Counted from the stretch's first letter, positions 41,701-64,000 are shown. The stretch is DNA of 64,000 bases from Candidatus Thorarchaeota archaeon (GCA_048882325.1 JBHLRS010000011.1:38521-102520); one strand, 5' to 3'. The notes: generated from the letters alone by a model not told the origin. A program made the numbers and translations.

Positions 41701-44700
41701 GCTGGGCCAATGTGTGCTTTCCATACTCGTCTGTCAATTCAGACATTGATGTGAGGATGGTGCCATTACTCCATGTTATGGTGACCTCGATTTGTGAACC
41801 AACCATAGGTGTTCCACTCCAATCGCGGAGAGTAATGACAATACCAATGGTGGCTCCCTGTTCAATGGGCAGTCCTGGTGTGGTTATTGTCAAAGTTGTA
41901 GCAGCATAGACGGTTGTGCTCTCTATAGCTGAGGTTTCGAGTAACCAACCCTGAGTAATTAGCTGTGCATAGAACTGGAGGATGCCCGGTGTGTCAAGAA
42001 TCAGATTGATGACCACAGTTCCGTCAACTCCTGTTGCATGATATGCATCATGTATAATGGTGCCGTTTAAGGTGATGAAACAATAAACACTTGCTCCTTG
42101 AATGGGAGATGAATTGGAGTCTATCACATTTACCACAAGGGGTCGTGATGTTGGTGCGACTGCGTCAGCAGGTAAAGTGATAGTCATTATCGGAGTTTCA
42201 AAGACCTCATCTGGTACCAGATCCGTAGCACTCTGATACCACAGCTGTTCTGCAGATGTAACTATGATAGTGTTACTACCTCTCATACTAGGAGTCCATG
42301 ATATTGATAGTGCCCCTCCTGTTGTGACTCCCGAGTCAGTGAAGAGAAGCTCATCTCCAGGACCTCGAACCTCAACTGTAACTGCCAGTCCAGATATCGG
42401 TGCCATCAAGTGGTCAACTGCACTCACATTAATCCAGTTACTGACCCCGACTTCCGAGCTTGAAATAACTGTTACAGTAAGTGAGACCGGTATCAACACA
42501 TCAAAGTCAATCTGACCTGTTGCTACCTCCCGAGAGAGGGAACCAGCATATATGGCCTCGTATCTATATGTCCCAGCAGAGTTTGCGACCCACACGAGGG
42601 AGACCTCACCAGTTGAGTTTGTAGAAAGAGTTTGATCAAGTATTGTGGTTGATGGTAGAAGGACTATCCTCAGAGTGATTGATTGCCCCATAATTGGATT
42701 CGACAGAGAGTCACTAAGATGGGCCCACAACGAACAAGTGTCACCAATCTCAACCTCAGCACCAACACTGCCTATCTGAAGATTACTGGATGACCATGAT
42801 ATCAATGACTCCGTGTCGGTTGTTCCAAGAAGTAGAATTCCACCAGTATAATCCGCTTGAAGCAAATACACTCCATTCTCTGACAGTGTTATAGTGAATG
42901 TCACGTATCCCGTCGAATTGGTAACAAGGTCCGAATCTAACACCACACTTGACGAAGGTGCGGTTATAGTCACATGCATTATCTGTCCTGTTAGTGGTTC
43001 TCCTCCTGTGGTTTCAAGCAGTATATCGAGTGAAACCTCTGTGTATTGAAATTCAGTACCAATTCCACTCCAGGTTATTGCCGTGTGTTCAGAAACTGTT
43101 ATGACCCCTGAGACCTGATTTCCCTCTAGCGACTGGTTTCCTGGAAAGATCAGTGTGAATGTGTGTACATCTCGACCTGATGGGATCCAAGTAAATGAGC
43201 TTCCTCCAATCCTAGAGATGTCCAGGTCAGTGTAGACTGTTGCATCCAGCGAGTTCTTGATTGTCAGAATGACTTCTTGACCTGAGATCTGGCTAGAGTT
43301 GGCGGCATGGTGAAGTGACCAATCTATCAAAATTGATTCTCCAACTGCACCAGTAAGACTAGACGATGCGGAGATGTATGTCGGATTGGGCTGTGCAATC
43401 ACAACCTCATCAATTAAGACTAATTGTGTACAGTAAGGTTTCTCAATTGTGATTGTAAGTGTATATGTACCTGCATCAAGACCTGAGGTTGGTACTGAGA
43501 ACCAGAAAAGTGAGCTCTTATCATAGTACCACTCTAAACCCCCAAGATTGATGGTTACTTGTGACTCCCCTGTGTCAACGTTTCCGACAAGAGACCATGA
43601 AATCGTACCATTGACACCCTCACCCATCTTCACAGTTGGTGTTTCAAGATCGAGAAATCCCACAATTGTCCCTTGAACTGAAACACTTAGTAAGTCATAT
43701 GCTTTTGATGCACCCCAATCTATCACTCTGATCGCAACGTCTGCAGAGCCCAATACATCCACACTTGCTGGGACTGGAACCATCAGTGTATCAACGTTGG
43801 CTACATTTGTATAGAGGTGCCACTGTCCAAAAGAGTGGACCAAGACAGAGTGACTTGCTGACACAGCGGTAATCGTCACAGAGACTGGCAAATCTGCACC
43901 TGGTACAGTGGTTGCACCAGCAGACGCAATGATTATTGTTGAGGGTACATCAATATACTTACACCTGAGTCCTAGAATGGAAACCATCCTGAACACTGAT
44001 TCAGTGATGACAGGTTGTCGCAAACTTGTTGAGTTGTACCATCCGGTTTCAAAATGTGACCTCAAGGCGCTATCGACCTGCAATCGGTCTATCGACTCTA
44101 AATCCGTGGAGAACGCAGAGGAGTTCAAGAGAGAAAGGGTTGCCACATCATATGACAGCGCCAAGAGGTCTGTGTATTGCAAACGAGTTTCTATAGCTGC
44201 AGTGATTTCGGAAGCCATACTCGCTGTGAGAATGCCAAGTCGTAATGCAGCTCTTGTTGAGAGAAAATCAATTGCTTCCTGATTTCCAGCATAGGGCTCA
44301 AGCGACCATCCAGATGGGTCCCAAGAACCCGATGTATACTCAGATAAAACAGCTGACTCAAGTATTGACCTATACGGAATTGTATCTAGTTCATCAAGAA
44401 GATATAAGGTTTCAATTGCTGCGACGGAGTATTGCATATGTGCAGTCCCACTCATGTAAATGGGTCTGTAGTGTCCTGTCACCCACTGTGCCTGCGAGAG
44501 GAACAGGACCACCTCTGAGATGACTCCAGGAGAGAGACTGACACCAAGGGACTCTGCCATGGAGGTTCCAAAGTACTGAGTCCAAACACTCATAGTCCTG
44601 TATTGGTTAAGCCCATAGTCAGGCGGACTCACAGCAGTGATATTTTCCCAAAGAGGGTACATGTTCAGTTTGTCAAAATATGAAAGATACTCTGCTGCAA

Positions 44701-46549: not shown

Positions 46550-46579
46550 TATGGCTGGTCCTCCCATAAGTCTGAAGGG

Positions 46580-46694
46580 TGTCCTACGGGTCGGATCTCT
46601 ACTGCGGAAAACAGGTCGAAGGGGGATCGGCAAGAGAATAGACCTGAAAGACTTGTAGAACAAGGGTGTGGGTAATTCGATCCGACCCGGGACA
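46580..46694. other. Nested inverted repeat / putative structured RNA leader
   Basis: CGGGTCGGATC (46587-46597) is the exact reverse complement of GATCCGACCCG (46679-46689), extended by TGTCC/GGACA across a 2-nt bulge. Inner pairs: TCTAC/GTAGA and CAGGTC/GACCTG. Confidence 0.6.
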
Positions 46695-50159: not shown

Positions 50160-51152
50160 TCATAGCCATTGCTCGAGTGATGACTGACGTGTGCCAAATC
50201 CCTTCCACAGTTTGAGGACTTTTTCTGTCGTGACTTCAACTGTTGGTTCTGGCATTACCATTCTGAGCGAACGTGTAAGTGATGGCACTATTGGTGGATT
50301 CAACTTCAATTGGATGTTCTGTGTGGTGATGTATGACGCTTCATCGAAAATTTCACGAGCAAGAGAGAATTCCTCTCGTTGAGTATGTGGAACTCCTCTG
50401 GCTTTTAATACCTCGATGAGACTCCCATGTCGCTGTAGAAGAATCGATCCCTTGCGAGGTCCAATTCCTTTTACTCCTTCATGAAAATCGCAACCACTTA
50501 GGACAGCAAGGTCTCTTAATCGCTCTAGATCTAGATCCATCTTAGTTTCAAGCTCTGAAAGCTTACTTCTTAGAATCCGTTCATTTGATACCTGGAGTTG
50601 CTTCGTGACATGCAGAGCTCCGAAAAGAAGTGCATCTACGTCATTCGAAACCACTGTGTCAACTAGACCGTCCCTACACATAGCTGCTGCCATCATCTCT
50701 GCCTCTGATGGGGCAGTGATTGCAGGAACGCCTATGACTCTGGCAAGGTCTTTGATATGGTGCCCTGCAAAGTACATCCTCACAGCTCGGCTGTTCCATA
50801 GTGCCTCAGCAATCTCTTCGTTGAAGGGGTCACCTTCGTCAACAAATTGCTGATAGAGAGATTGAGCTTTTTGTATCAGTTCAGGATTCGGATCCCGTTT
50901 TCGTGACTCCGGAGGTCCATCAAACACCAGGACAGGAAGGATATGAATACTGAGAGTAGACCCGACCAAGCTTAGCAAGGTTCTAACATGTGCTAATGGT
51001 AACCTCCCGTCAGGAGATTTCGTTGTTTTAATTGCAGTGAGTCGTCTGGTCAAATAGTTTGGTACATCAATCGCAATTGCTCCCGGACTGATTTCCTCGA
51101 TTCCTACCCAGCGCCAAGGAACAATGCTATCATTCCAATGTTTCACACCCAT
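50160..51152 (-). CDS. fen: FEN1/XPG family structure-specific nuclease with PIP box
   Basis: MGVK, IDVPNYL, PVLVFDG, APSEAE, SNDVDALLFG, GCDFHEGVKGIGPRKG, C-terminal QSSLEQWL. Confidence 0.9.
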   Translation of the reverse strand: MGVKHWNDSIVPWRWVGIEEISPGAIAIDVPNYLTRRLTAIKTTKSPDGRLPLAHVRTLLSLVGSTLSIHILPVLVFDGPPESRKRDPNPELIQKAQSLYQQFVDEGDPFNEEIAEALWNSRAVRMYFAGHHIKDLARVIGVPAITAPSEAEMMAAAMCRDGLVDTVVSNDVDALLFGALHVTKQLQVSNERILRSKLSELETKMDLDLERLRDLAVLSGCDFHEGVKGIGPRKGSILLQRHGSLIEVLKARGVPHTQREEFSLAREIFDEASYITTQNIQLKLNPPIVPSLTRSLRMVMPEPTVEVTTEKVLKLWKGFGTRQSSLEQWL

Positions 51153-51164
51153 AGCCGCCGCCTC

Positions 51165-51884
51165 TCATTTCATACTTCTGATTCCTTTTGAGTCCGCTCT
51201 GACAATTATGCTTGGAGGATTCTTCGACGCTGTGCATCTTTCTACGAGAATCCGAATTAGACTCTCGTTTGTTTTTAGCCTGTCAATCCGTACAACACTA
51301 TCAACCGCATGAGACAATACATTTCCACCAATCGGTGTTGTTGCTCCGGAAACCCAGTTTCTCGAGGATTGATCGGTTATGAGTGCGTGAGTATTTGTTT
51401 CATTTACAACACTCCTGATGACTTCAAAGGTATGAAATAGTTCTCGCTGACGACCTTTTGTTCCTGGAGCACCAGAGAGATTCAGAGCACCTGTGAGACT
51501 GTCTAGAACAATCACAGAAACACTACCTAGATTGTCAAGCGACCCCATCATCTGCTCAGCATCAGCCAGACTCATAATCTGTCCCACAACGATCCTACTC
51601 AAGACCTCTGATGCATTGTCCGCTGACGCACAAAGAGATCTTGCTAATGCAGGGCTGTAGTTAGTTCCTGAGTCTAGGAAGACGCACTTTGCGTTTGGTA
51701 GAGACTTGGCGGCTGACACTGCAATCCCATGTGCCATAATACTCAATGGTGCACGTTCTGAGCTGTGTAATAGGCTGATTTGACGTGGAAGCACAATGTT
51801 CTCAAAAGATTGTTCAAGAACTCTTGGAGTAAGTCTAATCTTTGATTCTGTAGGAATCTCAAGTTCTTCAAGCGGCACTCTCAA
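51165..51884 (-). CDS. RadB/Rad51-paralogue-like protein, degenerate Walker A
   Basis: RecA fold: VFLDSG, VIVLDSL, LITDQ, PIGGNVLSHAVD; the P-loop is replaced by HSSERAPLS. Confidence 0.8.
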   Translation of the reverse strand: MRVPLEELEIPTESKIRLTPRVLEQSFENIVLPRQISLLHSSERAPLSIMAHGIAVSAAKSLPNAKCVFLDSGTNYSPALARSLCASADNASEVLSRIVVGQIMSLADAEQMMGSLDNLGSVSVIVLDSLTGALNLSGAPGTKGRQRELFHTFEVIRSVVNETNTHALITDQSSRNWVSGATTPIGGNVLSHAVDSVVRIDRLKTNESLIRILVERCTASKNPPSIIVRADSKGIRSMK

Positions 51885-52833
51885 CGGAATCTATGACCTC
51901 CCGGATTGCTGTAAAGTTTCGATTTAGAAGCAGCTCTGACTCATGACCCTGTTTTAGTGTTTCAACATTGAGACCTGTTACTTCCATATCTGGCACGAGC
52001 ACCATCAATCCCCACTCCGATGGGAACACGGTCATGCGTATTGGCCACATTGACAACAGATCATTTACTGTCTTCTCATCCTTTGCAAGTCTGTATTCTT
52101 TCATCATCAGTCCATTCTTCTCATCAATTATTGGAATCATCTGAACTGCCTCAGCAAGAAGAGTAGGAGCTTGACCTTTACTCTCGATGCCATATGATTT
52201 CAGAAGTGCTAAGACTCTATCTAACATCGAAAGGTTTCTTCCAGTAGAAACAAAGAGAACATCAATCTCTTCGAAATGAGTCAAGGAGATGGGTAATAAT
52301 AAACGATCACGCATCAATTCGGCAACTTTGTTGCGATGTTCCGGGTTAATTACTAGAACTGAGTTTGTCGAATTCAAGGTGAGGGATGATCCATCTCCGG
52401 TTTGTATCACACGTTTTGAAAGACCACTTAGTGAACCACTGACCCCAGATGGAATATACTCCTGAATCTCATTTAGTATTGCTGAGGGATCTCCAATGAA
52501 TGAGATGAGAATTGATGTAGCGACCGCTGTGACAATCGATACGACAAGACCAAATGGCAGAGCAATGACAAAACCTACCACAATCATGTAACCCGAAGCA
52601 GCATAACTTACAACGTTGAGGACCATCTTGACAGGAGTATCTTCTTTCTGCTTTTTCATGAGCCTAAGGAGAACTACTGTGATAGCTCCTGCAATTATAA
52701 GTGGAAATGGATTTCCTGTCCTGAAAGCGAGTACAACTCCGACAACTGATGATAATAGCTCCGCACCTCCTGCAAGAGCAATAGCTCCTGCAAACACTAA
52801 GCCAACCAGTTTGAGGATGCTTTTTCCAAACAT
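51868..52833 (-). CDS. Membrane protein (4 N-terminal TM + soluble domain)
   Basis: Hydrophobic N-terminal third; coupled to both neighbours. Confidence 0.75.
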   Translation of the reverse strand: MFGKSILKLVGLVFAGAIALAGGAELLSSVVGVVLAFRTGNPFPLIIAGAITVVLLRLMKKQKEDTPVKMVLNVVSYAASGYMIVVGFVIALPFGLVVSIVTAVATSILISFIGDPSAILNEIQEYIPSGVSGSLSGLSKRVIQTGDGSSLTLNSTNSVLVINPEHRNKVAELMRDRLLLPISLTHFEEIDVLFVSTGRNLSMLDRVLALLKSYGIESKGQAPTLLAEAVQMIPIIDEKNGLMMKEYRLAKDEKTVNDLLSMWPIRMTVFPSEWGLMVLVPDMEVTGLNVETLKQGHESELLLNRNFTAIREVIDSVESAA

Positions 52834-53516
52834 TAACTGTTACCTCCGACCAGCTCTGAAACTCTGGACAGGTAAGGTTGGACTGTGGGACTCCCGTCCT
52901 CCTGCAACCTTAACACCCCAAGCTGCTCCCTGTTTTCTAGAGTGTCAATCACTCTTAGAATTCGCGTGGAATCTTCCAAAGGCTGACGAACTAGAACAAG
53001 ATCGTGGTCAACCCATTTCTTGATATTACGATAATGAACTGCAAGATTTCCGGACTCGGTCAACTCACGGCTCTCACTGGTGATTATGATTGTAAGTCCT
53101 CTCTCCTGCACGAGACCAGCTAATGTGGGTAGGACCTCCTCAACGAGTTCTCTACCCCATAGGATGGGGTTCTTCCTCGCCATGTCAAGCAATCGCGTAA
53201 TTGGATCAATCACGACGAGTGAAACTCCCTTCTGAAGTGATTGCGGGAGTCCAAGAATGTGATCAAGAGCTTCATTTCTGTCACCCATCATACTTACGCA
53301 TACGTTCTGAATCACTCCTCCCACCGAATCTATGGTTCGTTTTAGAAATGGGATGAAACTATGCTTTGAGTCAGTGTTGATCCACTCCACCTTTGAATAG
53401 CTGGATATTTCTGCCGCGATTGAGCATGCAAAAAGAGTCTTTCCAGAGCCTGCAGCTCCCCAAAGATGAATCAATCCATCCAGTGTAAGAGTGTCAGTTA
53501 GAGTTGCTTTAGACAC
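52833..53516 (-). CDS. RadB/Rad51-paralogue-like ATPase
   Basis: Walker A GAAGSGKT, WINTD, Walker B LVVIDPI, IIITSE; no N-terminal HhH; GTG start after AGGAG overlapping the upstream stop. Confidence 0.82.
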   Translation of the reverse strand: MSKATLTDTLTLDGLIHLWGAAGSGKTLFACSIAAEISSYSKVEWINTDSKHSFIPFLKRTIDSVGGVIQNVCVSMMGDRNEALDHILGLPQSLQKGVSLVVIDPITRLLDMARKNPILWGRELVEEVLPTLAGLVQERGLTIIITSESRELTESGNLAVHYRNIKKWVDHDLVLVRQPLEDSTRILRVIDTLENREQLGVLRLQEDGSPTVQPYLSRVSELVGGNS

Positions 53517-55149
53517 TTGCTGAACCACTCTCCTCCTTAGAACCTGAGGCAGAATCGGCGATGTCAACCTCCTCTAGAAGAGAGAGCTGATGCGTTTCTT
53601 TGATATTCCTCCTCTTTTTCTTTGATCTAGCAGTGACAACATCTGCTCCTGTTATGTTCATCTCAGGTTCTTCAGGCTCTTCAGAGATTTCATTCGCTGT
53701 TGCATCGACTGATGCATGCAACATCATATCCAGTAATTCATCGTCCTCCTCAGTTCCCTTGCTTGGTGCTGAATCAGTATCTTCAGGATTTGATTCCTGC
53801 ACTTGTTTTGGAATTATGACCTCTTCTGATGCGAGCTCTTTATCCATCTCCTCGACTGCTTCTTTCATGGCACGTTGGTTGAGATGGTCATCAATTGAAT
53901 CCTTGATGTCTGGACGTAGAGCACCGATATGATAGAGTGCATTGTTGAGCTGCGTTAGATGTTCTACTGCCTCAGTGAAGGTGATAGCTTTCGTAACATG
54001 CCCAGTGAGACCGACATATGCGAGTGCCAGGGATTCCTCTTGCTCTACACCTCCAAGATCCTGGAAGAGACCTAGAAACTTCCTCAAACCGACATCCGCC
54101 TCTTTCATTGATACTGAGCTCGAATCACTTTGAAGGGGAGCAAGCCGTACGCACTCGTCAAGAACTGAGCACGCCGCGCCAACCGCCGTATCAACATCCC
54201 CCTCCTCAAGAGCCCGACCTGCTGCGGCTATCAATGGTGAAACGACGAAGTTCAAATCTCCGATGAGCACTAACTTATCCTCATTCTCCAAAATTGATTT
54301 TGAGATTCTATCCGCATCCCCTAGTCTATCCAACACACTCTGTTCATCACTGAGGGTTGTGACGAATCCACTGATTGAGGACCTTGAGGATTGTAACAAC
54401 CAACCGCCCACAATTCCTGACAAAGCGCTTGCTAGTAGTGGTAATATCAATGATCCTGTACCAACTGTAAGAACTGAGAGAGTGGTCGCGACTCCAATGA
54501 TGAGCCCTACCATTGCTAGAATTCCAAACCAACCCCTTGTCAGACCACTCTCTAGCAATGCCCACTTATTTCCAATGATGCTCTTCTTCAAATCAGGAAG
54601 TCGAGAACGGGCATCACTCCTACGGACAAGTACAAATTCCTCTGGTGTAACCACTCTTCCGGTGTCTGTTAGCCAAGTCAAATCCATCGTTGGTTTTGTT
54701 CCTTTTGTAATAACATAGACCGTTCGTGTTTCATGGATGAGTGACTCCTTCTTTCCAGTCGCCCCTCTGAGCAAAGGCAACCGAATCTTGCCCCAGGGCG
54801 TCACCAAAGTCTGTTCATTCATGAACTCCTCGAGTCCGACATCTCCCAAGACTCGTGGGAGTGTCCTGTTGATGCTCTCAAGAACAGCGGCTCTCATAGC
54901 CAAACCACTCTTACCAAAAGCGGCTTCACGCAAGTCAAGAACATAGACAATGTCCACATGGACTCCACGAGTTCCTGGAATTGCTTCTAATCTTACTCCT
55001 AGTGTCAAGCCATTGGGATACCTTATTGTAAAGTGTCCTGTCACCTCTAAGGCCGCAGTTATGTCATGTTCCTTCTTCGTAGTAGTCGATGATTCTTGCT
55101 CAAGCTCTTCGCCTTCAGTAACCTTGTCCTCTTCTTTTGTTAAGCTCAT
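53509..55149 (-). CDS. Membrane protein (central 2-TM hairpin, helical domain, acidic tail)
   Basis: TMs WFGILAMVGLIIGVA and LILPLLASALSGIVGGW; GGAG SD. Confidence 0.75.
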   Translation of the reverse strand: MSLTKEEDKVTEGEELEQESSTTTKKEHDITAALEVTGHFTIRYPNGLTLGVRLEAIPGTRGVHVDIVYVLDLREAAFGKSGLAMRAAVLESINRTLPRVLGDVGLEEFMNEQTLVTPWGKIRLPLLRGATGKKESLIHETRTVYVITKGTKPTMDLTWLTDTGRVVTPEEFVLVRRSDARSRLPDLKKSIIGNKWALLESGLTRGWFGILAMVGLIIGVATTLSVLTVGTGSLILPLLASALSGIVGGWLLQSSRSSISGFVTTLSDEQSVLDRLGDADRISKSILENEDKLVLIGDLNFVVSPLIAAAGRALEEGDVDTAVGAACSVLDECVRLAPLQSDSSSVSMKEADVGLRKFLGLFQDLGGVEQEESLALAYVGLTGHVTKAITFTEAVEHLTQLNNALYHIGALRPDIKDSIDDHLNQRAMKEAVEEMDKELASEEVIIPKQVQESNPEDTDSAPSKGTEEDDELLDMMLHASVDATANEISEEPEEPEMNITGADVVTARSKKKRRNIKETHQLSLLEEVDIADSASGSKEESGSASV

Positions 55150-55168
55150 TTTTTCTGCTCCTCCATTG

Positions 55169-57367
55169 TCATTCGTCTTCTCCCCCGCTTTCGCTAAATC
55201 TACTCTCCAAGGCTTCTAAGAGACCTCGGGATATTCCGAGTACTTTTGAAAGACCTCCAAGTTCAGCAATGATTGCTATCGAGTGTAACAGCCATCTTGA
55301 AGATTCGAGTAAACCAAACATATCTCCCATGCTGATACCTAACTTGATAGCAAGCTGTCTTACCGAAATCTCAGTTGAAGCCAATGCAGCCATCATATGA
55401 TCAAATGAATCATCCAAGTTACTTCCGCTCTCAATTGATACTAAGTGACGAAGCAGCCACAGAAGCTGTGTGTTGTCTTCTATTGTTGGAAGTAATGCTA
55501 GTAATTCCCTTGCTGTTGGGATGCTCAAATAGAGTCTATTCACAGTCCGGCCAAGTTTAGTCGGTTTGAGTTTTCCATTGACCTCCCCCTCAACAAGACC
55601 CAACCGAATCAATAGAGCAAGAGGTGAGGTTTCTGACAATGCAAGTGGAATCACATAATCTGCAAGAGTACCTAGCTCGCGTGAGGAGGTCATGCCTAGT
55701 GTCACCAAGTGATGACAAAGAATTCCATCTTCACTAATTGGGCGACCACAAGAGCACATCGGACCCTCGACTATTCCTGATGGGGAAAGTCTCGCAGAGA
55801 ACCTACATGTATACTGTCCTCCTCCATAGCCTGTGATCAATCCCCCAATCACGGTTTCATGTTGCTCCCGGACCTTTGTAGCTCCGAGTACCCCTTTCCG
55901 TGCTGAGTGAATTGTATCTGTGAGTGCATGCCGCTCAATTGCAGCTTCAGCAGTAATTTCTCCAAGCTGTAGGACTCTCATTGGTGCCTTGGAATCCCTA
56001 ATGGCACAATGGACTAGAAAGGCCTCACCTAATATCCCATTCTCAATTTCTTCAAGAGTTGCTGAAGACAACATATCCAGAATGACGAGAAGCTGCTCTG
56101 ATAGTGAACTTGCCTCACCCAAAACACTGGGAATCGAGTCATGCTTTGGTGTGAGTATTTCTTTTCCTGATTCTGGATCTACGAGTAAATCGAAGTATCG
56201 GTCCTTTATCTTGTCAGCTTCACCAGTACTCCCAGCAAGAAGAATGCCAAACCCGACCTTATCCTTTCCTGGTCTCCCTGCTCGACCAAGCATCTGATGG
56301 ACACTGTTGGCTGAAAGGAACGTTCGATAATCCTGAGGTGACTTAGTACTCGATAGAACTACAGTCCTGGCAGGTAGATCCATTCCTGCAGCCAGCGTGG
56401 ATGTGGCTGAGATGACTCTGATGAGTCCTTGATTGAAAAGTCGTTCAACAAGCCTGCGCGTCTGGTAATCAAGACCTGCATGGTGATATGCAGTACCGTC
56501 ATGAAGCAACCCTCTCATATCAGAGGGTAATGTCACATTGACATTCTCCAATGACTTAAGCTCGATGTCCAACTTGTCCTTCTCACCTGAGGTGAACTGT
56601 CTCCCAACATCCTCAGCAAGTCGGAGAGCTTGCGCCTCTGCTTCTCGTCTAGTTCGATTGAAGACAATAGCTTGACCATCACCTTGAACCGTTGTCATCA
56701 CCAGTGTCTTGAGACTATGATTCTTGTTACCTGTAATCATCACTTTGCAAACTAGAGGAACAGGGCGTTCATCTGACTCGACCAATTCACAGTCCATCCA
56801 TTCTGCAAGCTCTTCTGGTGACCCAACTGTAGCTGAGAGCGCGATTATCTGTAAATCCTGTAACTGTCTTCTCATTCTCACAATGAGGCTCTCAAGTCTA
56901 GCACCTCTCCCAGGATCTGCAAGAGTCTGTATCTCATCAATCACAACAGTGCCTATTTCAGAAATCCAGCTCACGTTTCGACGGAGCAGAGAGTCTGCAC
57001 GTTCATAGGTCGTAACAATGACATCATACTCTGCAAGATCTTCTCCAGAATTCTGGAAATCGCCTGTGGAAATCCCTACTGCTACTCCAAACACCTCATA
57101 CCGGTCTCGAAGAATCTGACTCACCTGTACGGCAAGAGCTCGCAGTGGGACTAGAAATAGTCCCTTTTTTCCTGTGGTGACTGCTCGTAATATTCCTAAC
57201 TCGCCAACAAGGGTTTTCCCTGATCCTGTTGGACTTGCAACCATGATATTCTTTCCATCAAGGAGGCCCTTGTCTAGTGCAAGATTCTGAATACCTCGAG
57301 GTTTGATGCCAGCTTTACCTATGATTTCCTCCACCTTTGAGGATACATCAGCCACAGCCATCATCAA
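55169..57367 (-). CDS. Ski2/Hel308-like SF2 helicase with inserted SWIM Zn finger
   Basis: SPTGSGKT, PLRALA, DEIQ, SAT, HHAGL, TSTLAAGMDLPA, QMLGRAGRPG; SWIM-type CSC-x10-CHH. Confidence 0.9.
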   Translation of the reverse strand: MMMAVADVSSKVEEIIGKAGIKPRGIQNLALDKGLLDGKNIMVASPTGSGKTLVGELGILRAVTTGKKGLFLVPLRALAVQVSQILRDRYEVFGVAVGISTGDFQNSGEDLAEYDVIVTTYERADSLLRRNVSWISEIGTVVIDEIQTLADPGRGARLESLIVRMRRQLQDLQIIALSATVGSPEELAEWMDCELVESDERPVPLVCKVMITGNKNHSLKTLVMTTVQGDGQAIVFNRTRREAEAQALRLAEDVGRQFTSGEKDKLDIELKSLENVNVTLPSDMRGLLHDGTAYHHAGLDYQTRRLVERLFNQGLIRVISATSTLAAGMDLPARTVVLSSTKSPQDYRTFLSANSVHQMLGRAGRPGKDKVGFGILLAGSTGEADKIKDRYFDLLVDPESGKEILTPKHDSIPSVLGEASSLSEQLLVILDMLSSATLEEIENGILGEAFLVHCAIRDSKAPMRVLQLGEITAEAAIERHALTDTIHSARKGVLGATKVREQHETVIGGLITGYGGGQYTCRFSARLSPSGIVEGPMCSCGRPISEDGILCHHLVTLGMTSSRELGTLADYVIPLALSETSPLALLIRLGLVEGEVNGKLKPTKLGRTVNRLYLSIPTARELLALLPTIEDNTQLLWLLRHLVSIESGSNLDDSFDHMMAALASTEISVRQLAIKLGISMGDMFGLLESSRWLLHSIAIIAELGGLSKVLGISRGLLEALESRFSESGGEDE

Positions 57368-59709
57368 CTAGCACCTGCCACTTCCTGAGCCTGTCGTAAG
57401 GCCATGCTCCCTTTCATTGTGATTCTGAAGTTTGAATAAGCTACACCACTGTGGCTCTCATGTCCGCGCAGAATCATGCTTGCATGTTCAAGTCTTGCGA
57501 GAATACCCTCTATGTCTGGGTCTTTCTCAGTGTCATTGGCAATTATGAATCTCCGGACTGCTTCCTCAGTAAGGGGTTCATATCGCTCTAGGAGTTTGAG
57601 CACCTGAATGGCGAGGTATGTGTTCCCTGCAGCGACCATCTCCAGCAATGTTCGATTATGCATTGGTCGTTCTAGCTCGCTTGGGGGCGTGAGTTGGTCG
57701 ATACGTTGTGACATCTCTTGAAATGAATCTCGTGAATCAAGATCTGGCTGCTCATCCAATCGAATTGGTTGACATGTTTCAGTACCATCATGAACCAGAA
57801 GGGCTGTTTGGTCATCCATTATCCGTAAGTATGAAGACTCTCTTGGTGATATGCGCGCTTTGGTGTGCATTGATGTCATTGCATTGAGACCCAGTAAGTC
57901 TGCAACGATTTTGACATCAACAGACTCTCGAATTCTTAGTGAAACACATGACGCAAGAACACCTATCGATCCTGGAGCCATGTCTGCTGGATGTTCAAGA
58001 GCTAGCACCAGAGGACCTCTTTTCTTTAGATTCTTCAACAAACGTTCTGAGAAGGAATCATGTTTCATGAATCGCCGGTTCCTAATCCGCATATTCTCTG
58101 CACCATCTAAGATAACTATCAAATTAGGATCTGGTTGTAATCCTGCCAGTTTAATGCAAATCAGATTCCATGCAAAGCTGTCTAGACCCGTCGATCCAAG
58201 TGATATTTTTATGATTGACAGTGAGGGATCTGCAAGACGTCTTGTTGGGACAGTCTGAGTTCCGTAAAATGCTCTGGCCGCAGTACCCATGTGCAAGGAT
58301 CTGATTGCTTCCATTCCAATTAGCGACTTCTTTGAAGGCCTATGGTCTTGGACCATCTGGCCATCTGGCGATAATGATTGGGGCTCTTCAAATTCTGGAT
58401 TAAAACGGACATCAGCAAGTGTTGCATTACCTAGAGAAACTGCTCGTGAAATGGCAATTTCTAGCTCAGCTGCTCCACGCAGGTCTTGAGCTGCAACAAC
58501 CTGTAACGCAGAGATGAAAAGTGGAACATATTCACTTCGAGGATTTCCTTCTGAATCGATTGGATTCAAGACAAGGTCTTTTCCTAGCTCCATGTATACA
58601 GAAGAATCTGTTAGTGCAGTTAGTTTTGCTAGAGACGATGAACCTGTCACCAATATTACTCTCTTTCCAGCTCTAAGAAGCTCAGAGGTCAGAAGAGTTA
58701 GTATGTTATGGCGTAATGCTTCAGTCCCCCCACAGACAAGTGTTCCAGTCTCCAGATCCTGTGGTGACAAGCCAGCTGGCGGACCAGTCTGCAATGTATC
58801 AGGATTTAGTGTGGCTCCTAACCGATAATCATCCGGACGACCACGTATTGGAGCGATGAATTGACCCGGAACATTAGTGCCAACCTCTGCTGCTAGCTCA
58901 CTTCGTAACTGAACAAGCCACTCAGCTAATTCGGATCCAGCTGCATAGAACCAGCCACTCTGTCTATCTATTTGATGAAGCCTCATTCTTGAAGACAGGT
59001 GTCGCGGGTTTACTCGCTCCCACTCCTTCTCTGGCACCGCTGCCTTCACCGCAGAATCAAACGCACTGGTCTGTGAAGCGCTCTGCATGTGACCCACAAT
59101 AGTGGTATGTGAGATCCAAATGCCGCTTCGTTTTCGAACATAAGCGTCTTGATCTCCTTTTGATAATGCATTCAGATAGCCCTCAAGCATGTTTGAGATC
59201 TTTTCCTCATTCATTGCTCTAGTGAGTTTCTCAGGTCTCATTGTCACTGTCAGACAAAATCCATTGGAGGTGTCCAGAGCTCTAACAAGTGAACCAACAT
59301 TACCCAGAAGGTTCGGACTTGCCCTCCAGAGGTCTAGTCCAATAGAGTACCGAGTACCACCCGTACCTCTCAATTCGAGATGCTCATCATTTTCTATACA
59401 GGTTACATCTCCTTCCGGAACCTCAGTCCAAACTTGAAGCAGATTGTTTAACCACTGAGAACCTCTGAGCTTAGGAGAAAATAGCTGAACCAAAAGAAGG
59501 ACCACAGCTGTAATCGTGGCGGCTATTGGAATACAGAGACCAATGACGACAGCTACCAATGAAACAAAGAGCAATCTCCCTAAAGGGAGTCCAAGACTTC
59601 TCTCCTCCCATCTAATCTCAGTACCTGTGGTTATACTACCTTTTGGCTCGGATAGCTCCTGCAGAGGATCAACCTCCGGTTTCGTACCCAAGATCAAGCG
59701 TTTGCCCAT
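57364..59709 (-). CDS. Membrane-anchored HerA/VirB4-fold protein with degenerate ATPase motifs and C-terminal wHTH
   Basis: N-terminal TM pair; VLNPI, ATLADV, LIVILDGAEN, LVLALEHPADM, LRIRESVDVKIVADLLGL; the Walker A position reads VCGGTEALRH. Confidence 0.7.
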   Translation of the reverse strand: MGKRLILGTKPEVDPLQELSEPKGSITTGTEIRWEERSLGLPLGRLLFVSLVAVVIGLCIPIAATITAVVLLLVQLFSPKLRGSQWLNNLLQVWTEVPEGDVTCIENDEHLELRGTGGTRYSIGLDLWRASPNLLGNVGSLVRALDTSNGFCLTVTMRPEKLTRAMNEEKISNMLEGYLNALSKGDQDAYVRKRSGIWISHTTIVGHMQSASQTSAFDSAVKAAVPEKEWERVNPRHLSSRMRLHQIDRQSGWFYAAGSELAEWLVQLRSELAAEVGTNVPGQFIAPIRGRPDDYRLGATLNPDTLQTGPPAGLSPQDLETGTLVCGGTEALRHNILTLLTSELLRAGKRVILVTGSSSLAKLTALTDSSVYMELGKDLVLNPIDSEGNPRSEYVPLFISALQVVAAQDLRGAAELEIAISRAVSLGNATLADVRFNPEFEEPQSLSPDGQMVQDHRPSKKSLIGMEAIRSLHMGTAARAFYGTQTVPTRRLADPSLSIIKISLGSTGLDSFAWNLICIKLAGLQPDPNLIVILDGAENMRIRNRRFMKHDSFSERLLKNLKKRGPLVLALEHPADMAPGSIGVLASCVSLRIRESVDVKIVADLLGLNAMTSMHTKARISPRESSYLRIMDDQTALLVHDGTETCQPIRLDEQPDLDSRDSFQEMSQRIDQLTPPSELERPMHNRTLLEMVAAGNTYLAIQVLKLLERYEPLTEEAVRRFIIANDTEKDPDIEGILARLEHASMILRGHESHSGVAYSNFRITMKGSMALRQAQEVAGAS

Positions 59710-59710
59710 G

Positions 59711-60007
59711 CTAGATCTTCCCCCTCCTAGTTACAGTACTTTCAGATTGTCTCTGCAGCATATCCAATGCTTGTTTTATGCGACCAACATAAGCAGGGTC
59801 TCCACCAGCAATGACAATTGATCGTTTCCCTGTCATTAGGAGTTCAGGCATATTTCCGAGAGTTGGATTGCCATGTGCGATGAGTAAAGGTTGTTTTGTG
59901 AGGACAGTCCATCGGTACCCATGTCCGAGCTCTAGGAATCTCATGATGTCCTCAGGTTTGACACCCAAAGGTATCTCAAGCCCTACTCGTTCTTCTTCAG
60001 GATACAC
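59711..60007 (-). CDS. Small hypothetical protein
   Basis: 98 aa; AGGAGG SD; coupled within the operon. Confidence 0.7.
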   Translation of the reverse strand: MYPEEERVGLEIPLGVKPEDIMRFLELGHGYRWTVLTKQPLLIAHGNPTLGNMPELLMTGKRSIVIAGGDPAYVGRIKQALDMLQRQSESTVTRRGKI

Positions 60008-60596
60008 TGGTTTCCATTCCTCCTGTGTTTACCATCAGTATATCCTGTTTCTCAGCCCGTTCCACAGGTAGATGTGGATATGCTGCTCTCATGGAGCTTT
60101 CAAGGATCATAATGTCTGCGAGCATGAGCATTGAAAGTTTCTCAACCTTCGAACGTGTATATGGCAACCGCAGTACCCTTCTTCGGATCAGCATTCCAAC
60201 CTTTGTTGATTCATTACCAACTGGTCGATTGATAAAGAAAACAAGGGTACCACCCGCTTCATTCTCAAATCGTATGTGCATTGCTTGGAGTACTTTCCTC
60301 GCAGAATGACTCAAGTCGATACCTAGGGGTACACTACCAAGCAATCTTGCGGCACATATCTCCAGATGCCACGGTCTGATGATAGCCACGAATCCTCGTT
60401 GCTCATCCCAAAGAACTTTCGGAACATAGCTTGACTTGTATTCAACCCCCAGAACGATGATGTAGATTCCAAGTCCTGCGGCTATCATCAGGATGCCGCT
60501 GAGGTCATTCGGGGACAACCATAGTTTGAGTAGTAACGTCGTGGTAAAAAGGGACAGTATCAACCATCTTATCGGAATGTCGAAAAACCTCGTCAC
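59997..60596 (-). CDS. Membrane protein (2 TM + soluble domain)
   Basis: Two N-terminal TMs; ESSMRAAYPHLPVER resembles DSAVKAAVPEKEWER in the HerA/VirB4-like N-domain. Confidence 0.72.
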   Translation of the reverse strand: MTRFFDIPIRWLILSLFTTTLLLKLWLSPNDLSGILMIAAGLGIYIIVLGVEYKSSYVPKVLWDEQRGFVAIIRPWHLEICAARLLGSVPLGIDLSHSARKVLQAMHIRFENEAGGTLVFFINRPVGNESTKVGMLIRRRVLRLPYTRSKVEKLSMLMLADIMILESSMRAAYPHLPVERAEKQDILMVNTGGMETSVS

Positions 60597-62551
60597 AGGA
60601 ACCCCTCCTGCATATTCACGAATTGACCAATAGCCAGCTCAAGTTCCTCTACATCTCTATATGGCCAGACATCTGAAACAATGTCATCACCAAAAATCCT
60701 CAGATGCTTAAGGAAGCGATTGTCAAGAAGTACCACGACACCTGTGTCAGTCGGAGACCTTCGTAGTCGACCAACGAGTTGTGCAACTTGTCTGATTGAC
60801 GGCACAACTGCGGCATAAAAATATCCAGAACCATTTCCAAACCGTGAGTCGTACCATCGTTGCAATGCGATTTGGTAACTCGTGGGTGGACTGAAGGGTA
60901 TACCAATTCCAATGATAATATCAATCATACTAGAGCCATTATCCACTAAATCAATGCCTTCAGAGAACTTTCCACCGTACACGCAAAAGACAGCCTGAGG
61001 TCTGTCAGAGATCGCTTCGATCAGGGTTTCTATACGTTCTGTTCTTGTTTCCACAAGGTTCTCGCGATATCCAGTATCTATGGAGTAGCTCATGACCTCG
61101 TGAAGCATCTTGTAGCTTGGAAATGCAATCAAGGCACTTTTGTTAGCTGGCATTGTTGTCAGTGCGGTTGTAATCCTCTGAGCAAGATCACGCCAGAGGT
61201 CCGGACCCCGAAGCTGATACTTCGTGTTCAGTACTTTGTCCACTAGTACAAGCCTAGTCCCCTTGGGATATGGACTTACTAGGTCCTCAGCAAGAGCCCC
61301 AGACACACCAAGTAGTCGTGAATAGTAGTCCAGTGGTCTCAGAGTTCCTGACATCAAAACTGCTGATCTTGCTGTCCTGAGAATTGGTGCTGTGAGTCCC
61401 GAGGAGTTGAGTGGTTGTATCATGAGCACTGACCTAGAAGTCGGACCATCCTCTTTCCAGGATTTCTTGGTCTGAAGTGTGACATGCCAACCCTCACTCT
61501 TTGACGCCCTCTGAGCTGTGAAGAGGAACTCAATGAGTCTGTCAAGAGGGGTCTCAATCAACCCAGCATTCTCCGGGTCTCTAAGACTCGGTCTTCCAGC
61601 AGAGTGTAAGACTTCAAGGTCATCCTCCTTCACAAATCGTGGTGAAACATCCCACTTATCCAACACTCTCTCTGACCGATTATACATCTTGTCTAAATTG
61701 ACCATCATTGTCTCCCAAAGAAAGTCGATCACCTCTCGGATCCACTTGAGACTGGTCTCACGGGTGACCAACTGATGATTCTCCTTGAGCCAACGCAGGT
61801 CTTCATTGCTTAGCTGCGAAGTCTCTGCATCTAATACATGACTTGGTAGGTTGTGTGCCTCATCAATAAGTAGGTCCACTTCTGCTAGGGGGAGTCCCAA
61901 CGATGCCAGTAGCGCATCACGCACCCTAGATCTGAAGATGTAGCTGTAGGGTCCAATGATCACTCGACTACTTCGAGCGCACCATCGCATCAATTCATAT
62001 GGACAGACACCTTCATCTTCAGCCCTCTCCTCGACCCTATCTCTTGTAACAACACCCGTCTCTAGCAGGTCTTGAACTACCTCGCGAAGGACATCTCGAA
62101 TGATTATTCTTCCATCTGTCTTGTTCTTCTGATAGAAGTTCCAGTAATGGTGACACGAGCCTGTCTTGATCATCTGAGCGCAGGCTCGCATGAATCCCGT
62201 TGAGCTCAACGAATCCATAGTGTGGCGAATAGGACAGACATGAACTCGTGAAACCATGGTTGTTGCTGTGAGATCTGGCTTAACTGACCGGAGCACTTCC
62301 AATTCGCTCTCGAAGACCTTCGACTGTGAATGAGTTCTGGTCAGTGCGAAGAGTCTTGCTGTGTTATCTTGACCTCTTGCTGCCAGATAACCGGAGAGGA
62401 CGGCTATTGTCTTCCCCACACCGCAGTCTGCTGAGAGTAGCCCCACTGTCTTGGTAGAGAAGGATTCTACTGCGAGACCGACTGCCTTCTCCTGAGAAGG
62501 TCTAGGTGAGTATGGAAAGAACTCCATCCTGTCAGTCGTCACAGCGTTCAA
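60593..62551 (-). CDS. xpd: XPD/Rad3/DinG family Fe-S helicase
   Basis: Q motif PRPSQ, SADCGVGKT, four Fe-S Cys (VCPI, RACA, GSCH, VCPY), DEAHNL, MSGTL, FPSY, SEGIDL, QLVGRLRR. Confidence 0.92.
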   Translation of the reverse strand: MNAVTTDRMEFFPYSPRPSQEKAVGLAVESFSTKTVGLLSADCGVGKTIAVLSGYLAARGQDNTARLFALTRTHSQSKVFESELEVLRSVKPDLTATTMVSRVHVCPIRHTMDSLSSTGFMRACAQMIKTGSCHHYWNFYQKNKTDGRIIIRDVLREVVQDLLETGVVTRDRVEERAEDEGVCPYELMRWCARSSRVIIGPYSYIFRSRVRDALLASLGLPLAEVDLLIDEAHNLPSHVLDAETSQLSNEDLRWLKENHQLVTRETSLKWIREVIDFLWETMMVNLDKMYNRSERVLDKWDVSPRFVKEDDLEVLHSAGRPSLRDPENAGLIETPLDRLIEFLFTAQRASKSEGWHVTLQTKKSWKEDGPTSRSVLMIQPLNSSGLTAPILRTARSAVLMSGTLRPLDYYSRLLGVSGALAEDLVSPYPKGTRLVLVDKVLNTKYQLRGPDLWRDLAQRITTALTTMPANKSALIAFPSYKMLHEVMSYSIDTGYRENLVETRTERIETLIEAISDRPQAVFCVYGGKFSEGIDLVDNGSSMIDIIIGIGIPFSPPTSYQIALQRWYDSRFGNGSGYFYAAVVPSIRQVAQLVGRLRRSPTDTGVVVLLDNRFLKHLRIFGDDIVSDVWPYRDVEELELAIGQFVNMQEGFL

Positions 62552-62554
62552 TCT

Positions 62555-63175
62555 TCAGTCCTCCAGTCTCAGACATGCTTCTGCGCTGTAAATTCTGAAT
62601 TTGAGGGAGAAGTACTTGTGCAGCAGTCTCTGGAATCTCATCATCAACTCACGAGAGCTAAAGCCTGGCTCTTTCAATGCCATCCGTTCAACAATGGAAG
62701 GACTGAATCCCGCTTTCCTTGCAGCTTTCCAGAACCACTTCTCAACCTCCCTCATGGTGGAGAGAAGATGTGATAGTGAGTCTTCAATGATGGACATCAA
62801 CCCTTGTACAGACTCCTTCGGGTCTTTCGGAAGTTGAGAGACCCTGATGCCAGTTGGTAGATAGACTGCCACTCCCTCTGCGCTGTCAAGCTTGACCTCT
62901 ATTGGCACTCCCCTATTCCCTCTCAGGGTCTCTAGAAGAGATAGTAGCTTAGGCAGCTGTGGGAGCATGGGTTTCTCTAAATTTTGGTTTCTCCAGTCTA
63001 CCCTTGTCACAACGTAAAGTTCTGGATCTGGGCCTTTAGCTCTCTCTAGCACTGTTATTCTGTGTGCAGACTCTCGAAGCAGGAGGTTCACCAGATTGAT
63101 CATAGAGCTTCGAGGGACATTAGGCGGTGTCGTCGTCACCCAGGTTGACTGGTCCGGGTTGTTGGCGCTAGACAT
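62555..63175 (-). CDS. Hypothetical protein
   Basis: Likely start MSSANNP overlapping the upstream stop; coupled within the operon. Confidence 0.7.
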   Translation of the reverse strand: MSSANNPDQSTWVTTTPPNVPRSSMINLVNLLLRESAHRITVLERAKGPDPELYVVTRVDWRNQNLEKPMLPQLPKLLSLLETLRGNRGVPIEVKLDSAEGVAVYLPTGIRVSQLPKDPKESVQGLMSIIEDSLSHLLSTMREVEKWFWKAARKAGFSPSIVERMALKEPGFSSRELMMRFQRLLHKYFSLKFRIYSAEACLRLED

Positions 63176-63623
63176 CTCCCCAGACCTCCCCTGTGAGTGA
63201 CACGGCAACACCATCGTTCCGGATAGCTCCCTCGGACTCGAGTGTGTCCATGAACTTCATTGCCCGGCCCAGATCTATACCAGCTTCGCTGCACTCCCGC
63301 ATCACATCCTCGATGGTTACCGCACGTCCCCGGTTCATCTCAATCAGTGACTCTATGATGTTGAACACTCTACGCTTGACTCCGAAACCCCGCCCGTTGC
63401 CACCCTGTCGTATCTTCGCAACCTGCGACTCGATGACAAGCTCACGGACGCTGGACTGAGCCTCTTGGACGGTCACAGCATAGACGGTCCCTGGTTCGTC
63501 CAAGATGATACCCTGGCAAAGACTGCACCGCGATGCCTCATCTTCAGACTCTACATGTACGTAACCTATGTTGTTACATGAGCCACATCGGTAGATTCTG
63601 AACATGCCTCGCACACGGTTCAC
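63168..63623 (-). CDS. Zn-ribbon + winged-helix protein (DUF5817-like)
   Basis: CGSC...CSLC ribbon; C-terminal wHTH VTIEDVMRECSEAGIDLGRAMKFMDTLESEG. Confidence 0.75.
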   Translation of the reverse strand: MNRVRGMFRIYRCGSCNNIGYVHVESEDEASRCSLCQGIILDEPGTVYAVTVQEAQSSVRELVIESQVAKIRQGGNGRGFGVKRRVFNIIESLIEMNRGRAVTIEDVMRECSEAGIDLGRAMKFMDTLESEGAIRNDGVAVSLTGEVWGDV

Positions 63624-64000
63624 TAACTCTCACCTGCCACTGTTTCCGCCTCGACGACGATGTCTTCCTCTGCCTCTGATGCATCCTTATCCATGTCGAG
63701 GCCCTCTCCGATTTTTCCCAAATACTCCTTGATGTCCGGCTCTGTGTCCTTCTTCGTCTTTGAGTCCGGATACATTCCTCCATAGCCTACAACAAGTTCC
63801 GCGTCGAACTCTGGGAGTCCTGCATTGTCCTGTAGCTCTATCTTTCGCACATCAGCTTTTGTCCTTCGCGTATAGAACCTGTAGTCACTGGCATGCGCCA
63901 CTATATGCCCGCCTACAGGAGAATTCGGGTTGCCGCCATACGTGCTTATCTTACTCATCACCTGATTCGTGTAGGCGAAGATACATTCGGTAGCAGTGGC
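63623..64000 (-). CDS. radA: RadA/Rad51-family recombinase, C-terminal part (truncated by window edge)
   Basis: The frame is open to 64000: TNQVMSKISTYGGNPNSPVGGHIVAHASD..R..R.IELQDNAGLPE, plus an acidic C-terminal extension. Confidence 0.82.
   Translation of the reverse strand, partial: ATATECIFAYTNQVMSKISTYGGNPNSPVGGHIVAHASDYRFYTRRTKADVRKIELQDNAGLPEFDAELVVGYGGMYPDSKTKKDTEPDIKEYLGKIGEGLDMDKDASEAEEDIVVEAETVAGES

Follow-up and report, generated by a model that had tools for sequence, protein, structure and literature searches.

The final 64 kb of a 102.5-kb contig from a Candidatus Thorarchaeota archaeon (GCA_048882325.1, JBHLRS010000011.1:38521-102520; genome of 3.6 Mb, 93% complete) encodes, at positions 57364-59709 on the minus strand, a protein of 781 amino acids (aa) that we call the VirB4-like protein. 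We consider it reasonably probable that this protein is a VirB4-derived pseudo-ATPase that serves as a membrane-anchored adaptor, docking the Hel308-like helicase encoded next to it. "The window" below means the whole 64,000 nucleotides that were analyzed. An original prediction, made from the sequence alone, had described the gene product as a membrane-anchored HerA/VirB4-like protein with both Walker motifs eroded and a C-terminal winged helix, possibly powered by the adjacent helicases or paired with an active ATPase encoded outside the window.

The gene has an uninterrupted reading frame and is the seventh in a cassette of at least 13 co-oriented, tightly packed genes (50160-64000, minus strand), recognized from the list of open reading frames, domain matches and conserved gene order, that extends past the contig end. 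It starts one base past the stop of a 98-aa upstream gene, and its TGA overlaps the ATG of the downstream helicase gene as TGATG. Public orthologues carry the Thorarchaeota label. From the N terminus, the protein comprises a conserved tail, a transmembrane (TM) hairpin, an N-terminal domain of VirB4 type, a RecA-like domain of VirB4/HerA type and a C-terminal winged helix.

Fold of the VirB4-like protein

An AlphaFold2 (AF2) model built from 21 orthologues has a mean predicted local distance difference test (pLDDT) score of 73.6, with blocks near 90 over most of the core between residues 300 and 600. Foldseek returned 129 Protein Data Bank matches to the full model at E <= 0.001, led by TrwK/VirB4 and followed by HerA, the DndH C-terminal domain, TdpA and TrwB. 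Eleven of the 13 best matches are TrwK/VirB4 chains, aligned over about 600-760 columns, and the full-length TrwK alignment spans residues 93 to 669. When the RecA-like domain (residues 285-660; 57730-58857, as with all features of this gene on the minus strand) was re-aligned with VIA, VirB4 4ag5_A scored Z 28.6 with a root mean square deviation (rmsd) of 2.8 A over 327 aa (model residues 285-658), followed by the DndH C-terminal domain (Z 25.1), HerA 4d2i (Z 24.3), TrwB (Z 21) and FtsK (Z 16). Both structure searches therefore place the protein in the FtsK-HerA/VirB4 class, as had been proposed, and the Foldseek comparison recommended at that time returned a RecA-like fold of this class; neither of the two outcomes named as refuting the prediction, a different fold or orthologues with intact Walker motifs, occurred.

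The N-terminal domain (residues 93-265; 58915-59433) was also treated separately. Folded by itself (residues 92-275), it has a pLDDT of 82, and its top 14 Foldseek matches are all TrwK/VirB4 (E 4e-4 to 2e-2, TMq 0.41-0.56). An exhaustive VIA search of 48,161 chains again placed TrwK first (Z 8.4, rmsd 4.7, 168 aa, model residues 2-184); the other matches in that search cover only about 90 aa, or about half of the domain, and support for a VirB4 N-domain is moderate. The domain resembles that of TrwK and not a HAS barrel, and alignments to HerA begin at about residue 266. Because there is no HAS barrel, the protein is nearer to VirB4, in both its N- and C-domains, than to HerA, and the models suggest that it has the VirB4 body plan and not the HerA plan with a HAS barrel.

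Sequence comparison gave fewer links. The protein has no match in Pfam or NCBIfam at E <= 0.01, and the CagE_TrbE_VirB, AAA_10 and DUF87 models found none of 21 relatives at E <= 0.05. A profile of the family did match the solved HerA structure 8xau (E 4.5e-7) over the span between Walker B and the hRhxxxD motif, sensor included, aligning ILDGAEN with EEAH, EHP with QRP and LRIRESVD with MRLTNPDD; R333 falls exactly on the Walker A lysine (GGTEALRH versus GSTGSGKS). The same profile matched two DUF87 proteins of this genome at E 5e-11 and 4.5e-10. All of the scaffold motifs originally quoted occur in the expected order (CGGTEALRH, residues 326-334; VLNPID, 380-385; ATLADV, 428-433; LIVILDGAEN, 530-539; LKKRG, 561-565; EHP, 572-574; LRIRESVD...ADLLGL, 591-607), and the alignment to HerA 8xau supports their mapping.

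The two ends of the protein are distinctive. Its membrane anchor is a hydrophobic stretch of 46 residues (37-82) modeled as a helical hairpin (residues 43-90; 59440-59583) with helices at 43-59 and 61-90, and a hydrophobic stretch is present at these alignment columns in 21 of 21 orthologues. The cytosolic tail that precedes it (residues 1-42; 59584-59709) has invariant G8, P11, D14, P15, W34 and R37 in the 21 Thorarchaeota orthologues; given its low pLDDT, it is probably a flexible docking peptide. The predicted winged helix (residues 695-781; 57367-57627; VLKLLERYEPLTEEAV...ILARLEHASMI...FRITMKG) is modeled with the topology H-H-H-strand-strand-H at a block pLDDT of 65-87, DSSP assigning helices to 697-710, 715-724 and 733-742 and strands to 746-753 and 756-763. 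Its profile matches are weak: MarR/PadR structures at E 4e-4 to 1e-2 (MarR 4xrf, 4.4e-4; PadR-like 3l7w, 1.1e-3), with HTH_34 matches in five of 21 relatives and PadR matches likewise in five. L704, L706, L707, R709, Y710, E711, P712, T714 and F721 are invariant among the 21 orthologues.

Loss of the catalytic motifs across the family

The state of each catalytic motif was counted in an alignment of 130 family members, each 480 aa or longer, of Thor-, Loki-, Hel- and Baldr-archaeal origin. None has a GK[S/T] P-loop. In the degenerate Walker A motif (GTLVCGGTEALRH, residues 322-334; 58708-58746), which aligns with GSTGSGKS of HerA, the position of the P-loop lysine is occupied by R in 127 members (R333 here), by K in two and by A in one; G precedes it in four and T follows it in 14. 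The loop is two residues shorter (CGEGDK) in the two K-bearing members, and G327 and G328 are kept in the family. In the degenerate Walker B motif (LIVILDGAEN, residues 530-539; 58093-58122), D535 is kept (D in 112, E in 14) and the adjacent position of the catalytic glutamate, 536, varies (G 54, E 24, D 24, N 9). The arginine-finger and sensor region (LLKNLKKRGPLVLALEHPA, residues 557-575; 57985-58041), aligned with EGRKYG...ASQRPS of HerA, has no invariant arginine across the 130 members, and the sensor glutamine, position 573, is replaced by H in 88. Other parts of the protein are strongly conserved. R619 is R in all 128 members with a residue there; it lies in a basic loop, HxKxRxSxRE (TSMHTKARISPRESSYLR, residues 612-629; 57823-57876), that has low pLDDT and is an insertion relative to HerA. 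The NPxD motif, R592, D598 and much of the winged helix are also invariant.

The erosion of both Walker motifs is thus a property of all 130 relatives and not of one sequence, which is what the alignment of orthologues recommended in the original prediction was meant to establish. Because the loss is common to several Asgard lineages, it is fixed, and the distribution of motif states indicates that it predates their split. Judged from these substitutions, the protein most likely cannot hydrolyze ATP in the canonical way and is a pseudo-ATPase.

A linked helicase and its predicted docking site

The gene that overlaps the stop codon of the VirB4-like gene (55169-57367, minus strand) encodes a Hel308-like helicase paralogue and is translationally coupled to it. 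Its motor domains match Hel308 and retain intact motifs I and II (GSGKT, DEIQ), the protein as a whole falls far below the Hel308 cut-off, and a canonical Hel308 is encoded elsewhere in the genome. Of the cassette helicase, only the first 405 residues, its motor half, align with that canonical Hel308, whereas a helicase from Baldrarchaeia aligns over all 732 residues and is therefore a full-length orthologue in another Asgard class. The C-terminal half is specific to the paralogue and contains an inserted SWIM-like finger of the CxCxnCxH type (CSC...CHH) at about residues 538-553. In eukaryotes, SWIM proteins are partners of Rad51 paralogues, and downstream of this helicase gene are two RadB-like genes.

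The linkage between the two genes goes well beyond mere adjacency. At least 25 genomes have them side by side, and among genomes of the window's own family the VirB4-like protein and the C-terminal half of the helicase are both present in 31, both absent in six, and represented by the helicase alone in two, which are fragmentary assemblies.

Complexes of residues 100-781 of the VirB4-like protein with residues 420-732 of the helicase were predicted in three runs, alongside three controls. The prediction passed with a score of 0.61, versus 0.00 for the best control; the mark that it passed was reached by 58 of 80 solved complexes and two of 110 mismatched pairs, counts that are rough since our own alignments were used. 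Contact agreement was at least 57%, and the partner's pLDDT was at least 72. We know of no solved complex of this kind, and a pass by recall is therefore unlikely. On the VirB4-like side, the predicted interface comprises winged-helix residues 706-766 (helices 1-2 and the wing) together with residues 422-438 and 473-484 of a helical insertion in the RecA-like domain (residues 391-492; 58234-58539); these two stretches correspond to the invariant patches GNATLADV and AARAFYGTQ. The helicase contributes residues 500-539, running into the CxC...CxH finger, 567-589 and 617-650. Forty-five percent of the interface residues of the VirB4-like protein are invariant, versus 9% elsewhere (permutation p < 1e-4). 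Helix 3 of the winged helix (733-742) is outside the contact list and free in the model. The winged helix may therefore serve to dock the helicase, either instead of binding DNA or in addition to it, and its extreme conservation is, if the models are correct, better explained by protein docking than by DNA reading. With the adjacency, the co-occurrence and the predicted complex, the earlier suggestion that a neighboring helicase is the working partner gains support.

Distribution and variant forms of the family

A word-index search found 103 relatives at 35-100% identity, and all of those labeled by lineage are Asgard archaea (Thor-, Prometh-, Odin- and Lokiarchaeota). An exhaustive phmmer search of 1.84 billion cluster representatives gave 61 matches, among them 770-850-aa forms at 17-26% identity; the named distant matches are from Lokiarchaeota, Helarchaeales and Baldrarchaeia. 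The relatives' open reading frames are intact, at identities to the VirB4-like protein that range from 79% down to about 17%. A profile survey of 200 further Asgard genomes found the protein in 36 of the 43 genomes of the window's own family, nearly all at E < 1e-100, and returned strong matches in a dozen other Asgard families, including split forms (family f19, 6 of 6 genomes) and a long subfamily (f9). Matches at E 1e-11 to 1e-15 in this survey probably represent ordinary HerA-like proteins and are best left out of the count. As a rule there is one copy per genome.

Members of the long subfamily, from about 30 genomes, have 1230-1330 aa and no winged-helix match. The one that was read (L028:5201-8905, plus strand) again has a GTxxxR P-loop, and its gene follows those for a DUF2207_C membrane protein and an HhH protein. 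Split forms occur in Baldrarchaeia and in other Asgard families (L007/L008, L029): an N-domain of about 220-300 aa and a C-domain with winged helix of about 520-535 aa are encoded by separate, overlapping genes. In the Baldrarchaeia split the two parts are about 220-250 aa and 533 aa, and the locus also includes a KaiC/RadB-like gene, a 291-aa gene and the helicase. At the locus of one distant relative (L003:12547-14931, plus strand), the gene after that of the pseudo-ATPase encodes a 794-aa HerA/TraG-like protein whose Walker A and B motifs are intact (GIPKTGKS, ILEEAH). The two look like an active/inactive pair, which the Thorarchaeota cassette lacks, and the pairing is not general.

These observations bear on the suggestion that the protein pairs with an active ATPase encoded outside the window, which found little support: a HerA-type partner was seen only at the distant relative's locus. 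Two ordinary DUF87/HerA-like ATPases of this genome (C10:26767-28743, 659 aa; C9:47676-51473, 1266 aa) were considered as partners and rejected. Neither has a NurA gene beside it, and no link to the VirB4-like protein was seen, since the neighbors of both are unrelated genes (for an MFS transporter, a HAD hydrolase and a histone deacetylase).

The surrounding gene cassette

The cassette encodes, in order, RadA-like and XPD-like proteins, small and TM proteins, the VirB4-like protein, the helicase, a TM protein, two RadB-like proteins, a 4-TM protein and a FEN1-like protein. Besides the VirB4-like protein it includes three membrane proteins (59997-60596, 53509-55149 and 51868-52833). Searching the ESM Atlas with the membrane proteins of 321 and 546 aa yielded no usable match, the single model found being poor, and neither a VirB6-like protein (5-7 TM) nor a VirB2-like pilin was identified in the cassette. 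No NurA-like domain was found among its genes. The only sequencing runs listed as containing the stretch are DNA runs from sediment and other metagenomes, from two studies, with no RNA runs among them.

The cassette enzymes are paralogues. Canonical copies elsewhere in the genome reach or approach the NCBIfam cut-offs and the cassette copies fall far below them: 418 bits (C50) versus 118 bits for FEN1, 834 (C9) versus 369 for Hel308, and 310 (C25) versus 171 for XPD. The canonical RadA (C14) scores 480 bits; the window's sole RadA-like copy is truncated at the contig end and was not scored. The FEN1/XPG-like paralogue (50160-51152, minus strand; cut-off 352 bits) appears to keep its acidic active-site residues. 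The XPD-like paralogue (60593-62551, minus strand) scores 268 bits on the PADLOC type IV DinG model, versus 331 bits for the genome's housekeeping XPD. The two short RadB/KaiC-like proteins (51165-51884 and 52833-53567, minus strand), one with an intact P-loop (GAAGSGKT) and one without (HSSERAPLS), form a second active/inactive pairing within the cassette.

Gene order is the same in a Thorarchaeota relative (L002) whose VirB4-like protein is 40% identical, and the flanks match as well (693 aa with 558 aa, 199 aa with 199 aa). Two genes past the cassette is a 2635-aa open reading frame for a giant surface protein (38756-46663, minus strand), with putative counterparts beside the cassette in L002 (2575 aa, with prenyltransferase-like and Ig-like domain matches) and in genome G116 (2625 aa). 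Loki-type loci have the helicase and a FEN1-like paralogue within 10 kb, and one of them carries a closer relative of the cassette FEN1-like protein than the FEN1 of this genome is. The possibility that the cassette is optional was examined and could not be confirmed. G116, which is 93% complete, seemed to be without the VirB4-like protein and the helicase, but five distal cassette genes run into a contig end, which marks an assembly break. Three cassette genes were not found in G063, G134, G182, G124 and G173; because a not-found rate of about 14% is close to expectation at about 90% completeness, we do not call the cassette optional.

Proposed function and alternative explanations

We propose that the two-domain VirB4 body has been kept and is held in the membrane by its N-terminal hairpin, and that the winged helix and the helical insertion would form a docking site for the SWIM-bearing C-terminal half of the helicase. 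By analogy, the insertion may be used as coupling proteins use their all-alpha domain to recruit DNA-processing enzymes. The helicase, which has kept its motor motifs, would supply the energy or mechanical work, and through the complex the spare recombination set (RadA/RadB-like, XPD-like and FEN1-like) would process DNA at the membrane. Oligomeric state, DNA substrate and biological role are matters that we infer, and the wider statement, that a domesticated, motor-less VirB4 descendant in Asgard archaea tethers to the membrane a dedicated Hel308-type helicase together with private Rad51/RadA paralogues, an XPD-like helicase and a FEN1-like nuclease, is offered as a tentative suggestion of low probability.

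Several observations weigh against this interpretation. Three small genes separate the VirB4-like gene from the helicase in the Baldrarchaeia locus, the helicase is several kb away in two Loki-type loci, and it is missing from the one neighborhood of the long subfamily (about 1230-1330 aa) that was inspected. The contact is a model, and one of the three runs scored just 0.18 and did not find it. Conservation of the helicase side is weakly enriched (27% versus 14% invariant, p ~0.09), and since interface prediction itself leans on conserved surfaces, the enrichment of invariant residues is not independent proof. Finally, the invariant P-loop arginine and the kept Walker B aspartate could mean that some phosphate ligand is still bound.

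The best surviving alternative is that the protein is the hub of a DNA import or exchange apparatus like Ced or Ted, in which the cassette TM proteins form a channel, the superfamily 2 helicases pull DNA in, and the RadA, RadB and FEN1 paralogues recombine it. We consider this fairly unlikely; it would extend the adaptor interpretation rather than exclude it. VirB4/TrwK (4ag5, 7o42, 8rtd) is among the closest known systems. It shares with the VirB4-like protein the two-domain body, its N-domain being matched by TrwK only, and attachment to the membrane; VirB3-VirB4 fusions exist, and the N-terminal hairpin recalls them. In contrast to VirB4/TrwK, the protein is without a GK[S/T] P-loop, a catalytic glutamate and a Pfam VirB4/AAA_10 match, has an extra C-terminal winged helix, and is encoded with paralogues of recombination enzymes and not with recognizable VirB2/B6/B8-type genes. 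The three other membrane proteins of the cassette count in favor of such an apparatus; none was recognized as VirB6-like or as a pilin. Ced and Ted are domesticated type IV secretion systems (T4SS) built on a VirB4 homologue, Ted loci carrying HerA-like and Rad50 genes (PMC9905601); the VirB4-like components CedB and CedD are paralogues of each other (PMC11868833). CedB/CedD and TedB resemble the VirB4-like protein in being archaeal, membrane-associated VirB4 derivatives linked to recombinational repair (PMC9905601, PMC11868833), but they occur in Sulfolobales and Thermoproteales and are thought to be active motors that power transport, whereas the sole T4SS component present here appears, from its motifs, to be catalytically dead. 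General searches showed no sequence relation between the two groups; no direct comparison was made.

A second alternative, a scaffold for defense against viruses or plasmids on which a helicase and a nuclease assemble as on the HerA- or DndH-like platforms of Sir2-HerA, DUF4297-HerA and DndFGH, is improbable. In its favor, the only significant sequence-profile link of the family is to the defense HerA 8xau, the fold matches to HerA (DUF87/HerA_C) are strong (Z 20-24; Z 20-22.6 for defense HerA proteins), and HerA is likewise a platform for nucleic-acid enzymes. The C-terminal domain of DndH, a bacterial defense protein with an intact NTPase and part of a multi-protein DNA-directed system, also matches well (7es4, over 318 aa), and searches of a few fairly complete genomes did not find the cassette. 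Unlike HerA, however, the VirB4-like protein has no HAS-barrel N-domain, no adjacent NurA or effector gene, and has lost the catalytic motifs. PADLOC returned nothing for it or for the uncharacterized cassette genes, and the HamB and type IV DinG matches of the cassette helicases are generic, since each of these models scores the housekeeping enzyme (Hel308 or XPD) above the cassette one. Relatives with 40% identity retain both gene order and flanks, the family is spread over several Asgard lineages, usually in one copy, and the apparent absence in G116 is a contig break. A role in defense is without specific support and fits poorly with so stable a locus.

We regard as still less probable a third alternative, that the protein is an NTPase or nucleotide sensor with a non-canonical P-loop (GG[T/S]xxxR), acting as its own motor or switch, with a winged helix that binds DNA like the gamma domain of FtsK. 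The near-invariance of R333 at the lysine position, the kept G327 and G328, and D or E at the Walker B aspartate in 126 of 130 members would all agree with it. The order of TM segment, motor and winged helix is also that of FtsK and TraB, and the coupling proteins TrwB/VirD4, like FtsK/TraB, have a TM anchor followed by an FtsK-HerA-class domain. TrwB recruits DNA-processing proteins by an all-alpha insertion, and FtsK and TraB end in a winged helix. They are, however, active translocases whose winged helix reads DNA, and they match the fold less well than VirB4 does; the VirB4-like protein has lost the motor motifs, and its winged helix is predicted to hold the helicase. The basic residue has no glycine before it and no serine or threonine after it in nearly all members, the modeled helix begins three residues early and shortens the loop, and neither the catalytic glutamate, the sensor glutamine nor the arginine finger is conserved. 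The invariant residues of the winged helix, moreover, fall in the predicted protein interface. Decay of the gene in this genome alone, for which nothing speaks except the motif loss, is refuted by the intact frame of 781 codons and by motif states common to 130 relatives with many invariant residues, and can be dismissed with near certainty.

Significance

We found no description of this protein family or of the cassette in the literature. To our knowledge, pseudo-enzymes derived from ring translocases are rare; we know of no catalytically dead VirB4, and literature searches found none. Also new is the docking of a helicase that the models predict through the winged helix and the helical insertion.

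Several Asgard lineages have conserved this family, which goes together with an additional, cassette-specific set of the core recombination enzymes, one copy of each; the linked set includes a Hel308 paralogue bearing a SWIM-like finger and a pair of Rad51-type ATPases of which one is intact and the other degenerate. Should the predicted docking prove true, membrane-coupled DNA processing in Asgard archaea would be directly testable with a handful of soluble proteins. It would imply that a passive adaptor can be made from the VirB4 body, and it would bear on how DNA exchange and recombination were organized in the lineage that gave rise to eukaryotes.

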